DNA of 20,000 nucleotides from an uncultured virus (IMG/VR IMGVR_UViG_3300030099_006113). Lineage: Duplodnaviria > Heunggongvirae > Uroviricota > Caudoviricetes. Under the pieces are notes generated by a model. It worked only from the letters and a program-made list of their open reading frames with translations, had not been told where the DNA came from and did no database searches. The DNA lies in the IMG/VR virus record IMGVR_UViG_3300030099_006113, positions 48,174-68,173 of that record, one strand, 5' to 3'. This document shows positions 4,585-13,191 of this stretch, piece after piece. The stretch's first letter is position 1, and every line of letters starts with the position of its first letter. The position numbers were made by a program, and so were the translations under genes.

Positions 4585-6081
4585 TCAGTTTACCCACAGA
4601 TCTTCTTCTGAAATCCCAATTCCCCATAGATCTGGATCATACTTATCCTGGCTGTCTCTCTCAAGAAGATTATCAGCAATACGCTCCTCAAGCTGCTTGA
4701 AGTAATCTTTTGTACCCACTTCGGGTCCCGATCCCTCATATTCATGTAGAAAGTGACGACTTTCTGTCCAAGCATAAAGAGCGGCATCCGAAAGGTGATT
4801 ATCAAACCTTCTATCTTCTGCTGTTCTTGATTTGTTGTACTGTAGCTTGTCCCACTCTTTTAGCAGGTCCATTCCACTGGCTACTTTGATTACACCGTTC
4901 TTGATGTCTGAGTTCATGAGTTTAATCATGCCCATTTTGTCGGATGACTTTTTGGCTGGCTTAATTGGTAGCCCAGAGCGCTCTTTGAATGTCTCAAGCA
5001 ACATTCTTGATGAACCACCGCCAGTATCCATTACAATGGAAGAGAAATCATAATCGCCCATAAATGCGTGGATTTTTTCTTCAACCTCAGAAGTCAGCAT
5101 CTTGGTTTGCTTGTATTCATCAATGAAGAAAAGGAATGGATGATCTGGTGACCAAGCAGCGACGACAAAGGCGGTAGCATCATGGTAACCGAGGTCGATA
5201 CCGAGGACGAACTCCCAGTCATTACTTTCGGGAGTATCCTCAAGCAAGTTGTCCTCAGAGTACTCGTAGACGATATCTTGGTCGTTTCTTACCCAGAGTC
5301 CCAAGTACTCGCGCTTATAGGAGGAATCAGTTGGGTCAAGAACCCCACTTTTGATGTCAGCCTCTATGGATCTGACAGCGTGCGCCATGTAGGGATTATT
5401 TTTAACTGTCCACCTGTGAACTGAAAAGCTGTATTTATCCTTTTCAGTAATGTCATAAAAAAATCCTGAACAAGAACTATTAGGCGTAGAAATTAAAACC
5501 AGTGCGCCGTCTCTATCAAGCAAAGCAGGAGTTAAAACTTCGTTTACGAGCTCGCGTAAGTTGATGTTAAAAAAAGCAGCTTCATCAAGAACAGCCAAGG
5601 AAAATGCTGCACCGCGTAATTTATCCACGTCACTTGCATCGTTGGCACCAGTAAAAAGAATCTGAGATCCATTAGGAAAGGTAGCTACAAGGTCTGCATT
5701 ATTAAACTTAATACCAATCCTAAATCTTTGGTTAGCCTCCTTAAGGGAAGCCCACAAAATCCTTTTAGCCGCCTCTCTTGTCCTAGCAATGTAGACACAC
5801 ATGGTGCCTTCGTTCTCAAGGGCCTCTTTGATTAAATAACGCCCTGCAGCATAACTCTTTCCACTTCTTCGACTGCATATAGCAGCCTTCCTCTTTGAAG
5901 GGTCGTTAATGAAATCAAGCTGCTCTTTAAACAAGTTACGAGTCATGTTGAGCATTCGGCTATGCTCAGATCTTCGCTGGGCTTTGTTCTTAGAGGGACC
6001 GGTATGGCCAGACCTGGACACAAAAGCCTCATAAAGCTCTCGACTAGTAAGGCTAATCGTTGGCAGCTTGGTCTTAGCCAT
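4585..6081 (-). CDS. terL: Terminase large subunit
   Basis: Walker A 'SRRSGKS', Walker B 'AVLDEA', 'LISTP' coupling motif, RNase H-like nuclease 'GIDLG..D' and 'FDNHLSDA'. ATG at 6081 (MAKTKLP) preferred over the longer track start at 6120. Confidence 0.95.
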   Translation of the reverse strand: MAKTKLPTISLTSRELYEAFVSRSGHTGPSKNKAQRRSEHSRMLNMTRNLFKEQLDFINDPSKRKAAICSRRSGKSYAAGRYLIKEALENEGTMCVYIARTREAAKRILWASLKEANQRFRIGIKFNNADLVATFPNGSQILFTGANDASDVDKLRGAAFSLAVLDEAAFFNINLRELVNEVLTPALLDRDGALVLISTPNSSCSGFFYDITEKDKYSFSVHRWTVKNNPYMAHAVRSIEADIKSGVLDPTDSSYKREYLGLWVRNDQDIVYEYSEDNLLEDTPESNDWEFVLGIDLGYHDATAFVVAAWSPDHPFLFFIDEYKQTKMLTSEVEEKIHAFMGDYDFSSIVMDTGGGSSRMLLETFKERSGLPIKPAKKSSDKMGMIKLMNSDIKNGVIKVASGMDLLKEWDKLQYNKSRTAEDRRFDNHLSDAALYAWTESRHFLHEYEGSGPEVGTKDYFKQLEERIADNLLERDSQDKYDPDLWGIGISEEDLWVN

Positions 6082-6532: not shown

Positions 6533-6857
6533 TGCTTGCCTTCCTTTCCCGAAGTGCCTTTTTCACGAGCTTTTCCAGCTCTTCATTCGACATCTTAGCA
6601 ATAGCATCAGACTTTAATTGCGATTCAATCTCTAACAATCGCTTTAAACCCCCGAAACAACTGTCTAATTTCTGCATATCTTTATTATCTAGCTCGCCAT
6701 TATTGTCTACCTTGTCTTTTAAAAGGGATATCTGGCTTTCTGTTATGTGAAATAAATCATCCCAAAGCTTATGCTTGTCTCTTGATTGAACAATCTGAGG
6801 CTTCTGCCCCATTACGCTGTAGGAACCAGTGGCTCTAGTCTTTTTTGTAGCTGTCAT
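6525..6857 (-). CDS. Putative terminase small subunit / first late gene
   Basis: 110 aa helical protein heading the packaging operon; C-terminal 'MSNEELEKLV' resembles the 'LSDEEL' tail common in TerS. Function mostly from position. Confidence 0.45.
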   Translation of the reverse strand: MTATKKTRATGSYSVMGQKPQIVQSRDKHKLWDDLFHITESQISLLKDKVDNNGELDNKDMQKLDSCFGGLKRLLEIESQLKSDAIAKMSNEELEKLVKKALRERKASND

Positions 6858-6939
6858 AAGAAAAGATTAGACGATGATTTGATCTACAGGCAAGTCAAAG
6901 CTAGAATACAAAGACCCCACAGCTACGGAGTAGACGCCA

Positions 6940-7066
6940 GTGACCCAACGGGTCACCCTTTAGGCGGACACGCAACCCTTGTCGCCCTTCTGTCCGTTTC
7001 GTACCTAACGATAAGACATTACCCAGTTGGATATCGGCAAGGGCAACGGGCGTAGCTCACCGTTGC
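6940..7066. other. Structured non-coding segment (hairpins plus possible pseudoknot)
   Basis: GTGACCC/GGGTCAC (6940-6956), CGGACA/TGTCCG (6965-6996), loop CCCTTGTCG (6976-84) complementary to CGGCAAGGG (7035-43), GCAACGG/CCGTTGC (7043-7066). Confidence 0.45.
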
Positions 7067-7479
7067 AGCACAATATAGGTATCCAATCCTACGGGCTTTT
7101 TAGGTCAATCCGAGGGGGGGTGCTTGAGGGATCTCGATAACGCACTGCGATAAACGAAAATTAGGCAAAAATTCGTAGAGGGTATTTAACACTCTATTGA
7201 CTTTGCTCTCTGGGGGGTACCCCCTGACTATATTGCACTGTAACCGGCAGTAGCGGATGTCCACTGTCATTCCTTGGGCCGTCAGACCTCCGCTCATCGC
7301 TCGGCCTGGTCGCTCCGCGAGTGAATTACACCTCACGAAAATAAACAACTTTCCCATGTTTTCCCTGTATTCCTTGGTATTTTAACCTTTCGTACAGATC
7401 AAAACAGTTCGGTTAATTCACAAAAGGTGCCCGGATACGTTCGTCACTTCCCACCCTCCCACCCTACGGCGTGCGTTGC

Positions 7480-8242
7480 CCTCACGATGCCTCCGGCGGC
7501 GCCTACCCGGCGGGGGCAAACGTGCGACGTTTGATCCGACACCCCCGCCCCCTAGAGAACCTGCGACTCTCGAGCAGGACTACCGACGCTCCCGAAGCCA
7601 TTGAGTACAATGTCTCCGACAGCTTACGAGTCCTGCACTCGGCCACACGTTCTCTCCACCGCAAGTCCGAGAACCTTGGCAATGTTCTTCGCGGGATCTG
7701 CATGCCTCATTAGTCGATAGGCCCGCTCAATGGACTAACGACGCCTGAGTACAGGCTTACGAGTCCATGGGCAGCTACCTGCATCTCTCCGGGATACTAT
7801 CAAGCTGAATTACCCGCTAGAATCAGAGCCACTAACGACGCCTCCGGCTTACGAGTGGCCCTAGATTCGCTACCAGCTCAGAACACTCCGGGCAGGCGAG
7901 TACGCCCGCCTTGCCTCGGAATCGGACGTAGGGTTGTGACAGGAAGGTCTAATCCTACACTCCTGTGCTCTATCTATCTCTATCTCTCGAATTAATCGGC
8001 GTGAGTCTACCAGCCGTCGTCGGGCGGTAAAGGACGGGCGAGTACGCCCGCCAGCCTCTGCGAATAGACACAAAAGATACGGAGTACCGTACTTTTGCAT
8101 CGATTCTTGATTCTGGTTAACGAAGGCCCACACGACTGCTTGGCTGAGTACAGCCAATCAGGCGCTTAATCGGGCCTTCTAATCCTTGACCGTCCTCCTC
8201 CGTCTGGGTCTGCAAGGCCTCACTTAATTCAAGAAGAAATCG
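7480..8242. ncRNA. Candidate large structured ncRNA (or folded ssDNA element) with repeated internal-loop motif and AGTA-capped hairpins
   Basis: Near-continuous stems; three copies of ACT-A(A/C)CGAC-GC..GC-TTACG-AGT in different flanking helices; six G-AGTA-C hairpins; no credible ORF. Strand unresolved. Confidence 0.65.
7574..7859. repeat. Three structural repeats of one internal-loop motif
   Basis: 7574-7636 GCAGGACT-ACCGAC-GCT..AGC-TTACG-AGTCCTGC; 7730-7768 ATGGACT-AACGAC-GCCTG-AGTA-CAGGC-TTACG-AGTCCAT; 7828-7859 GCCACT-AACGAC-GCC-TCC-GGC-TTACG-AGTGGC. Confidence 0.85.
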
Positions 8243-8296
8243 TAAAAAACATAAACAAAACTTACGGTTTCGTAACACTCAAAAAAGGAAGACAAC

Positions 8297-8929
8297 ATGT
8301 CATTGACTCAAAAGTTACTAGCTAAGCACGGCGCTAAGATGTCCAACAAAGCACTGTCCGCTGCAACAACTGGCCAGCACAAGCCAGCGCCTCTTGACCA
8401 GTCTCGCCTGTCCATTGCCTTCGAATTCATTGAGGTGGTAGCCACCATCCAGGTGATGTTTGAGCGTCAAATGGCTCCCGCAGGGTCAGGTGAAGCCTGC
8501 AAGGAAGCATGGAAGGAAATCAAGCAGGCTCTTCGCAAGCCTAGCGGTGAACACGGCCGCTTTTGGCGCGAGATACACACAGCCTGCGACGCGCACGGCG
8601 TCGACTGGTTCGCAGACGGCGGCGCTGACGCTAAGCTGGCTGCGGTCCACTCCATCCGGGTATCACGCGGAGACGTTACGGAAGACGGTCGTGAGGCTCC
8701 GACCCCGGACATGGCGGACTTGCCCCAGGATCCCGAGCCGCGATGGATTGACTGTCCGGCACCGGACGTCACCGACGCCGTGCACGAGGACTACGACGAG
8801 GTCCAGGCTAACCGACTCAGCGAGGTCGGGGCGCACTTCGCCGCAGTTGCGGAGGATGTCGCGTCGTACGGACGCATGTGCAACGGGGTCTGGGTGATGG
8901 ATCACCTGGACACCGACCCGCTCCTCTAA
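8297..8929 (+). CDS. GC-rich orphan hypothetical protein, first early gene
   Basis: 210 aa, AAGGAAG RBS before ATG, basic N-terminus, acidic C-terminal half, followed by a terminator; no family recognised. Confidence 0.7.
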   Translation: MSLTQKLLAKHGAKMSNKALSAATTGQHKPAPLDQSRLSIAFEFIEVVATIQVMFERQMAPAGSGEACKEAWKEIKQALRKPSGEHGRFWREIHTACDAHGVDWFADGGADAKLAAVHSIRVSRGDVTEDGREAPTPDMADLPQDPEPRWIDCPAPDVTDAVHEDYDEVQANRLSEVGAHFAAVAEDVASYGRMCNGVWVMDHLDTDPLL

Positions 8930-12448: not shown

Positions 12449-13191
12449 GTAGATTTGAAATTAATTTACCAGATGAAAAGCTCCGCATAAAGCCACCTAG
12501 GTCAATCTATTACGGGCCACCCAAGATTGGTAAGTCTACATTTGCCAGCAAGTTTCCATCTCCCATTTTTATTCAAGCAGAAGATGGTGTGTCTGGCCTA
12601 AATGTTTCCAAGATACCAAGGACTCCTTTGGTTTCGTGGGATGAGCTCATGAAATGCTGTGATCAAGTACTTAAATCACCCCATGAAATGAAAACCTTGG
12701 TTGTAGATACTATCGACCGAGTTGAGCACTTATCTCGCCAGTGGGTTCTTAAGCATACATATTCAAATAACAAAAAAGACTTTATGGCTTACTTCAAAGG
12801 ACCAGTTGAAGCAGGTCAGAAGATATCCGAGCTACTCGCTTGTCTTGATCAGATCAGAGATGAGCGAGGAATGAATATCATTGTTCTTAGTCATGAAGGT
12901 CTGCACAAAGGGGCTGATGAGCTTGGCGAAGAGTTCAAGAAAACGGCCCCATCTGTTTCTCGCTATGCATGGGAGCAGCTACACAACTGGGCAGATCAAA
13001 TAGGCCACATCACGAATGACTTCAGAGTTGTTCAAGGTAAGGCACGTCAGGCCAACAAAGGCAGACACATTGTATTTTCGGGTCACCCAGGCAAAGAGGC
13101 CGGTACTCGAGCTGGCTATGAAATGCCAAAAGAAATCAAACTAAACTTTGAGGAATATCTCAAACACACAAAGGAGTACCTTGCATGCTAG
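12445..13191 (+). CDS. AAA_24 / Sak4-like phage ATPase (recombination)
   Basis: Walker A 'YGPPKIGKST', 'FIQAEDG', Walker B 'TLVVDTID', 'IIVLSH'; followed by an SSB-like gene as is usual for Sak4. Confidence 0.85.
   Translation: MSRFEINLPDEKLRIKPPRSIYYGPPKIGKSTFASKFPSPIFIQAEDGVSGLNVSKIPRTPLVSWDELMKCCDQVLKSPHEMKTLVVDTIDRVEHLSRQWVLKHTYSNNKKDFMAYFKGPVEAGQKISELLACLDQIRDERGMNIIVLSHEGLHKGADELGEEFKKTAPSVSRYAWEQLHNWADQIGHITNDFRVVQGKARQANKGRHIVFSGHPGKEAGTRAGYEMPKEIKLNFEEYLKHTKEYLAC

Follow-up and report, generated by a model that had tools for sequence, protein, structure and literature searches.

A candidate folded RNA with repeated G-AGTA-C-capped hairpins in the non-coding gap of an uncultured marine podophage

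A 20,000-nucleotide (nt) stretch of DNA from an uncultured tailed virus (IMG/VR record IMGVR_UViG_3300030099_006113; this whole stretch is hereafter the window) holds a GC-rich element of ~700 nt in the gap between its leftward late genes and its rightward early genes. Six hairpins within this element end in the same four-base loop on the same closing pair, G-AGTA-C, and their number is far beyond chance. The element recurs in related sequences, contains a repeated module of ~40 nt, and shows covariation in both local and long-range helices; comparison of these sequences suggests that it is a previously uncatalogued folded RNA of a small clade of uncultured marine podophages. Tentatively, we favor a reading in which the hairpins are exposed tips of a scaffold RNA and serve as repeated docking points for one partner, most plausibly a protein. 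The element and its hairpins, in window coordinates, are as follows.

7539–8240, transcribed strand probably minus: structured element, ~700 nt, GC-rich, three domains, recognized by conservation and predicted fold
7599–7612, plus strand: hairpin 1, CATTG-AGTA-CAATG, within module M1
7743–7756, plus strand: hairpin 2, GCCTG-AGTA-CAGGC, within module M2
7895–7906, plus strand: hairpin 3, GGCG-AGTA-CGCC
8035–8050, plus strand: hairpin 4, CGGGCG-AGTA-CGCCCG
8071–8097, plus strand: hairpin 5, a two-tier stem with a bulged A at 8077
8140–8157, plus strand: hairpin 6, TTGGCTG-AGTA-CAGCCAA, the tip of a self-contained insert (8122–8179) closed by GAAGGCCC/GGGCCTTC

Every hairpin of the original prediction is present on the plus strand with the AGTA loop and the G–C closing pair, and the stems have, as it held, five different sequences, GGCG/CGCC being common to hairpins 3 and 4; their lengths, in order, are 5, 5, 4, 6, 5, and 7 pairs. 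The comparison with shuffled sequence that the prediction had proposed counted hairpins with a 4-nt loop and at least four Watson–Crick pairs that share one loop and closing pair. Across 1000 dinucleotide shuffles of a 939-nt gap sequence, the largest same-loop count per shuffle was 0 in 44, 1 in 950, and 2 in six, against the six observed. The hexamer GAGTAC is itself enriched, with 16 occurrences on the two strands of the window versus 4.96 ± 2.39 in 200 shuffles (largest 12); six lie within the 694-nt element, where 0.2 are expected, and five in the remainder of the phage, where 3.7 are expected. Since GTAC is not avoided in the genome, the pattern cannot be put down to a restriction site. 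The 68,173-nt contig as a whole contains 31 copies of GAGTAC, and the proposed comparison with the rest of the genome likewise sets the six apart: among the other 25, a single copy forms a weak hairpin of four pairs (window position 13174, overlapping a ribosome-binding site) and the rest have at most two pairs. As a broader background, 106 GAGTAC in 245 kb of unrelated or element-free sequence yield three stems of at least four pairs and none of at least five.

The element is shared, in whole or in part, with a small set of related sequences (designated here by L numbers). The 30.7-kb viral contig L071 matches it at 84.5% identity over 7539–8121 plus 8181–8232, and the metagenome contigs L074 and L080 at ~76%; L031/L032 match its 5′ 460 nt, likewise at 84.5%, and L105 holds a truncated copy. 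Examination of four DNA sequencing runs added one further variant, from run X9, and found no joints or ends. In the more distant L008, whose terminase is 71% identical, only the 3′ core of the element aligns and hairpin 4 is absent; L016 (terminase 60% identical) has two module-like copies in a similar divergent gap. The sequence adjoining 7539 on the left is not found in L071, and the element is therefore taken to start there. Among 25 further loci found through a neighboring 110-amino-acid (aa) protein, modules occur only in L105, and none were found in the L007 and L009 records. Given that other members of the group lack it, the element is an optional insert in a gap whose left part is widely conserved.

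Searches beyond this clade returned nothing comparable. No Rfam model, including those of GOLLD, ROOL, OLE, raiA, and the other families, matched the window at its gathering score; at E values up to 10, the interval 7200–8400 gave only two chance-level hits, and nothing real was found in L074, L080, L016, or L071. A scan of bacterial genomes with a pattern for the 3′ core gave two chance hits, neither with a module, and four of nine metagenome matches to the same pattern (L075, L078, L081, L082) were rejected as chance. Literature searches yielded nothing on an AGUA or UACU loop in phages; the AGUA tetraloop turned up in work on hammerhead ribozymes. A 2023 catalogue of 10,006 viral candidate RNAs (PMC10690425) was searchable in part, and five sample-number prefixes drawn from the names of related contigs are absent from the six supplementary files that could be searched; a prior listing without a name is therefore possible.

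Within the element, GAGTAC occurs six times in the window, four times in L071, eight times in L074, and five times in L080, and all 23 copies lie at hairpin tips on the same strand, each with at least four of the first five arm positions Watson–Crick paired. The loop and closing pair are thereby found on at least 10 different stems at nine sites, and sites are gained and lost between close relatives. The stems of hairpins 1 and 4 show compensatory change—a T–A pair of hairpin 1 is G–C in L071, L074, and L080, and G8037>A accompanies C8048>T in hairpin 4 of run X9—so that hairpin formation, as originally proposed, finds support at the single-strand level. Individual sites vary further. Hairpin 2 has the loop AAG in L074 and GGTA in run X9 and is nearly deleted in L080; hairpin 3 is present in L074 and L080 and absent from L071; the loop of hairpin 4 is TACC in L080; and the stem of hairpin 5 is kept in the distant L008, with CACG as its loop. 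The insert that carries hairpin 6 is absent in L071 and L080 and spans 58 nt here; at the same site, L074 has an insert of ~190 nt with nested modules. Both L074 and L080 carry two extra capped modules, and L074 also has a 12-nt capped mini-hairpin. The idea that L008 uses a single, lineage-specific loop was rejected, its hairpins carrying several different loops.

The cap is also found beyond the element. Relatives without the element have, in the equivalent gaps and on unrelated stems, single hairpins of five or more Watson–Crick pairs with the GAGTAC cap: L111, L113/L114 (two, plus one inverted), and L123, where the hairpin possibly lies inside an open reading frame (ORF). Because the background gave none among 106, these hairpins suggest that the phage group at large uses the cap as a signal, which the element has multiplied; they point to a partner shared by that group or its host. 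These relatives have other features as well. At 620–1040 of the upstream region (window orientation), L111 has about nine iteron-like repeats ACGC(N)ACGCGGGAG, which could be an origin or a regulator-binding array, and a similar word occurs in L113. After the first early gene, L113 (440–720) has a GC-rich non-coding stretch of ~250 nt with words common to the element (GTCTCCGAC and GCCTCCGGC) and one GAGTAC-capped hairpin; this stretch may be a small antisense-oriented RNA.

Hairpins 1 and 2 lie inside copies of the repeated module, which consists of a P1 stem ending in ACT/AGT, an internal loop in which A-N-CGAC faces TTACG, and the capped hairpin beyond it. In a third unit, GCC-TCC-GGC replaces the capped hairpin. 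Scores below are those of covariance model R1.

7574–7636, no strand given: module M1, with a long capped insert; 37.7 bits, E 8e-9
7729–7769, no strand given: module M2; 66.3 bits
7826–7861, no strand given: module M3, with the inner hairpin GCC-TCC-GGC and no AGTA loop; 47.8 bits

The P1 stem of M3 is CCACT/AGTGG, versus GGACT/AGTCC in M1 and M2. Ten short module copies from three sequences align cleanly, and in their common fold 93.0% of cells are paired, versus 80.0 ± 2.1% in shuffles; two-sided changes affect six of the 12 pairs, and the support collapses in slid controls. The covariance model recovers 20 module copies, all within the element, plus two weaker ones in L016. In these two, the innermost P1 pair is C–G rather than T–A, G or T fills the variable core position, and another conserved insert serves as the cap. 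L016 (2255–2390) also has three tandem hairpins, GCGCCCCC-TTAT-GGGTGGGGGCGC, with AAACACAAACACAAATAAGGAA spacers; these lie downstream of the gene that comes first after its module region.

At the scale of the whole element, RNAalifold was applied to the four full sequences, which are at least 76% identical, and the pairs common to the predictions for the two strands were kept. This leaves 151 base pairs, 97.6% of whose cells are standard pairs, in three predicted domains.

7554–7655, no strand given: domain I, closed by 7554–7563/7646–7655; helices 1–3; holds M1 and hairpin 1
7656–7938, no strand given: domain II, in which 7656–7688 pairs with 7880–7938; helices 4–12; holds M2, M3, and hairpins 2 and 3
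7978–8240, no strand given: domain III, in which 7978–8034 pairs with 8183–8240; helices 15–21; holds hairpins 4, 5, and 6

Six pairs show two-sided changes, five of them long-range (7681–7912, 7685–7883, 7990–8229, 8003–8213, and 8016–8201), a result reached by none of 500 shuffles, although it counts against this evidence that it comes from only four sequences and that the structure tested was predicted from the same four. Folding z-scores for the window are −4.1 on the plus strand and −6.2 on the minus strand. If the predicted fold is correct, the long-range covarying helices, together with helix inserts at fixed points, would indicate a large folded RNA and not a set of local DNA hairpins.

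The balance of evidence leans toward transcription of the minus strand, on which the loop would read UACU. Mismatches in helices are A·C and never G·U when read on the plus strand, which makes a minus-strand reading more likely: the non-Watson–Crick cells of the 151 shared pairs comprise nine A·C in nine columns, no G·U, and five others, and the arms of the 23 hairpins contain 13 A·C, no G·T, and 18 other mismatches, the two sets overlapping. No matching substitution bias was found in unpaired columns. The change T7602>C in run X9 and L105, for example, gives C·A on the plus strand, equivalent to G·U on the minus strand, and L008 has a 9-pair helix with tandem C·A/A·C on the plus strand. Folding points the same way: the z-score of L008 is −4.8 (minus) versus −2.9 (plus), in the same orientations as the window, and the structure conservation index is 0.657 (minus) versus 0.581 (plus). 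The GC skew of the gap has the same sign as that of leftward genes, and in L113 the GC-rich non-coding stretch, which holds GGGCG-AGTA-CGCCC, leads in the minus orientation, opposite to that of the early genes, into a strong terminator-like hairpin of nine pairs with a T run after it.

Several observations weigh against the minus strand. In L071, L074, and L080, the first rightward gene has its start codon 12–15 nt beyond the end of the element; the element thus abuts the ribosome-binding site of that gene, leaving no room there for a leftward promoter. The L016 copy has the same orientation relative to the downstream gene and folds better that way (z −3.0 versus −1.25), and no convincing promoter-like site was found beside the element on either strand. 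Two other lines of strand evidence were set aside. The words GGTTAA/TTGACC, considered as plus-strand G·U evidence, were dropped in view of the conserved partner of TCCTTGA being TCAAGGA, and single mismatches counted over the full set of short inverted repeats (AC 13, GT 3, other 48, against shuffled values of 9.6, 7.9, and 37) carried too much noise to be of use.

The window covers positions 48174–68173 of a contig that resembles two related podophage genomes of ~34 kb in tandem, head to tail, and it lies in the second of these (phage B, GC ~0.43; the first, phage A, has GC ~0.52). The last 2 kb of the contig match 31897–33959 at 84.5%, and bases 1–111 match 34725–34835 at 94.6%; the contig may be a chimeric assembly or a tandem pair. 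At the lysis/tail-fiber end, the two halves are 88–98% identical in protein and are much more distant elsewhere. Phage B encodes the terminase, portal, and HK97-type capsid of a double-stranded DNA (dsDNA) tailed phage. On the minus strand, ending at 6857, are genes for capsid, portal, large terminase, a GNAT acetyltransferase, and the 110-aa protein; on the plus strand, from 8297, are early/replication genes, including ArdC-like and Sak4-like genes and that of a DnaC-like loader. No cultured relative was identified: the GenBank phage collection has no DNA match to the gap, and the portal finds only a Bacillus phage at 22% identity. The 20 sequencing runs that hold the stretch are all marine or seawater metagenomes, recorded as DNA. 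The gap and some further features in it are as follows.

6858–8296, no strand given: non-coding gap of 1.44 kb, flanked by the late/packaging genes (leftward) and the early genes (rightward), from the ORF list
6910–7230, no strand given: left part of the gap, with the palindrome GGGGGGTACCCCC (7212–7224) at its end; conserved in the phage group at large
7968–7988, plus strand: CT-rich (polypyrimidine) tract that lies between domain II and domain III and is conserved in L071, L074, and L080

The gap is considered non-coding since its sole ORF (7100–7357, 85 aa) has no protein-level relative in related phages, whereas the neighboring genes do. Candidate coding ORFs at 7471–7713 (plus) and 7503–7703 (minus) were dropped, for they show no three-base periodicity against L071 and their indels are not multiples of three; a search for tRNA and tmRNA returned nothing. 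GC is 0.50–0.57 in the bins over 7201–8400, versus ~0.39–0.48 in adjacent coding bins. The left part of the gap (6910–7187) is 79% identical to L071, and blocks of it—among them ACGGAGTAGACGC, GGGGGGGTGCT, TAACGCACTGCG, AAAAATTCATGGAGGGT, and the palindrome—are common to L008 and to L007, which lacks the element; this part may be a packaging or late-regulatory region. A sigma-70-like site at 6879–6907 was rejected as a conserved rightward promoter, since L071, L008, and L007 do not conserve it. Just left of the element, at 7509–7549, is a strong GC hairpin (GGCGGGGG...CCCCCGCC, with an inner AAACGT/ACGTTT stem) that L071 does not have. CT-rich tracts occur in L008 and in the gap of phage A (L001, 4270–4390), and L007 has a purine-rich tract in the equivalent place on the same strand (~4590–4650). 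The first early gene (window 8297–8929, versus L071 from 2428 onward) is wholly different between phages that share the element, and the right end of the element is therefore a mosaic junction.

A constant tip on freely changing stems, variable in number and position and in a single orientation, points to multivalent recognition sites. Under the reading we tentatively favor, selection would hold the four loop bases and the G–C closing pair constant, stems would drift by compensatory change, and whole hairpins or ~40-nt modules would be duplicated, inserted, or lost. The tips would then be repeated docking points for a single partner and the rest of the RNA a scaffold that displays them, in the manner of a multivalent sponge or platform such as CsrB/RsmZ rather than a processing array; if the minus strand is transcribed, the molecule would be a long leader or an independent non-coding RNA that begins close to the start of the early genes and extends toward the late ones. 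The earlier proposal of an array of sites for one protein is thus retained in part. A loop and closing pair kept constant on so many stems, in four to eight copies, fits one partner, but the array is not a simple one, the hairpins being tips of what appears to be a large RNA with long-range covarying helices.

Other observations count against this reading. When the phage B ORFs of 50 aa or more were compared with five related records and phage A, none proved exclusive to genomes with the element, and no binding protein that would read the tips was found to co-occur with it; a partner would on this evidence be either a host factor or a protein that the group has in common. The original prediction had also singled out free variation of the loop among related phages as telling: the loop is not freely variable within the clade, yet it is not invariant either, since AAG, GGTA, TACC, and CACG stand at some homologous sites and M3 never has the loop. 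Finally, an identical 12-mer, GGCGAGTACGCC, occurs at three sites in L074, from which it follows that some copies are recent duplicates, and that part of the identity of the loop reflects shared ancestry and not selection.

Resemblance to CsrB/RsmZ is one of logic more than of sequence. Those RNAs likewise carry many stem-loops, in variable number, with one loop motif on different stems (here six, four, eight, and five copies), but their loops have the GGA core read by CsrA/RsmA, which is found in none of the six hairpins on either strand and only in the M3 hairpin, on the minus strand. They are also strings of local hairpins, whereas the element has long-range covarying helices and three closed domains.

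A purely RNA-based architecture, in which the tetraloops dock into RNA receptors such as the A-N-CGAC/TTACG internal loop and produce a compact fold or a multimer with no protein involved, is somewhat unlikely in our judgment. It would account for the size of the element, its several domains, and its covarying long-range helices, as well as for the lack of a co-occurring protein. Each module couples one capped hairpin with one conserved internal loop, and loops and internal-loop cores rise together across the sequences (window 6/3, L071 4/3, L080 5/5, L074 8/7). AGUA and UACU are, however, not receptor-binding loop classes known to us. Sites that maintain a unique fold are usually fixed, whereas the tips here appear at new positions and vary from four to eight between relatives of 76–85% identity. 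L016, moreover, keeps the internal-loop core under a different conserved cap, so the loop and its putative receptor do not change together, and single capped hairpins occur in relatives without any module. There is precedent for such an architecture in GOLLD, ROOL, and OLE, which are reported to form RNA-only complexes (10.1101/2024.12.08.627333).

It is also possible, though rather improbable, that the hairpins are a by-product without function, palindromes and modules having multiplied by duplication or slippage in a tolerant non-coding region and the loop being shared by descent. Ribosomal and other large RNAs carry expansion segments of this kind, self-contained helices of variable length at fixed points of a core, much as in the insert at 8122–8179. 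The 12-mer at three sites of L074, the nested module copies of the same sequence, and a 21-nt repeat in the window (7890–7910 and 8032–8052, 90% identical) all fit this reading; hairpins 3 and 6 are indels relative to L071, and the element is retained where the loop has been lost. Unlike in expansion segments, however, the inserted helices repeatedly end in the same loop and internal-loop module. Module stems have diverged by compensation (GCCTG, GCTTG, GTCTG, and CCTGG, with matching 3′ arms), with loop and internal-loop core unchanged; all copies have one orientation; and GAGTAC caps stand on unrelated stems in other phages of the group, in contrast to the empty background of 106.

Hairpins or cruciforms acting in DNA—N4-type promoters for an injected RNA polymerase, priming signals of an origin, or packaging signals by the terminase genes—are a highly improbable explanation. 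The region does adjoin packaging genes between divergent operons, gaps of relatives hold iteron-like repeats (the nine or so of L111), and the hairpins could form equally on both DNA strands; N4 promoters, too, comprise several short hairpins with conserved loop features ahead of podophage early genes. But helices spanning 200–260 nt covary, as in a folded RNA and not in local extrusion, and the mismatches are strand-asymmetric (nine A·C versus no G·T), a bias that DNA hairpins would not favor. N4 promoters have a stem of five to seven pairs with a three-base loop; here the loop is of four bases in six of six, and the hairpins are embedded in long-range covarying structure. No polymerase-like match was found in any window protein or in the large virion proteins of 1084 and 1112 aa searched against Pfam and PHROGs, although a very divergent enzyme is possible; the same large virion proteins, the 1112-aa one among them, occur in relatives without the hairpins.

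The original prediction had also raised processing sites. On such a reading, each hairpin would direct a cut by an RNase III-like or phage endoribonuclease and a leader would be chopped into pieces; despite the regular spacing of hairpins 1–4 (144, 151, and 142 nt) and a plus-strand AGUA loop that fits the AGNN class of yeast Rnt1p, this is likewise highly improbable, as uninterrupted stems of four to seven pairs are too short for RNase III-type cleavage (the eukaryotic Rnt1p needs a duplex of ~14–16 pairs), insertion or loss of hairpins has altered the spacing in relatives, the hairpins lie within larger conserved helices that argue for an intact molecule, and no nuclease gene co-occurs with the element.

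The loop analogies that accompanied that suggestion fare no better. The AGUA loop of the plus strand fits the ANYA consensus of MS2-type operators in six of six hairpins, but the unpaired A two pairs below the loop is found in none (the bulged A of hairpin 5 is five pairs below), and the element belongs to a dsDNA tailed phage without the coat protein/operator system of single-stranded RNA phages. On the minus strand, which the mismatches favor, the loop would be UACU and neither AGNN nor ANYA would apply. The element differs as well from REP/BIME repeats, which are dispersed over intergenic regions, whereas all six hairpins and the module hits are confined to one locus, and from lambda-type boxB/N, whose loop is GNRA-like with five bases, whereas here it has four and is not GNRA on either strand.

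Few large structured RNAs are known from phages, and their roles are for the most part unsettled. By analogy, the element would work most like a multivalent hairpin sponge and look most like these large, ornate phage RNAs. To our knowledge, a repeated module with a constant tetraloop has not been described for GOLLD or ROOL, and the element differs from both in its Rfam search results and in its host group, marine podophages. It resembles them, as they are reported (10.1101/2024.12.08.627333; PMC5737381), in a length of 0.6–0.9 kb, several domains, a GC content above that of the surroundings, carriage by phages, and variable peripheral helices. With the element, a class known chiefly from prophages of Firmicutes would gain a marine case carried by podophages. 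Its design is unusually readable: the core is conserved, a module of ~40 nt is repeated, and the tip of four bases stays constant while its copy number changes between close relatives.

More speculatively, and with a probability we consider low, the element may represent a new class of large ornate phage RNA, a multivalent device whose tips, G-UACU-C (or G-AGUA-C), are a clade-specific address label read by one conserved factor. If so, an RNA of 0.6–0.9 kb might soak up a host protein—for example, a defense factor or a global RNA-binding factor—early in infection, or might self-assemble into an RNA particle as GOLLD and ROOL do; the single copies of the label in related phages that lack the element would then be the minimal form of the same signal. 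With a host factor as the partner of the tips, the element would serve takeover or counter-defense as an RNA-based device; if the tips instead engaged one another or the loops of the modules, it would be a further example of a natural RNA assembly.

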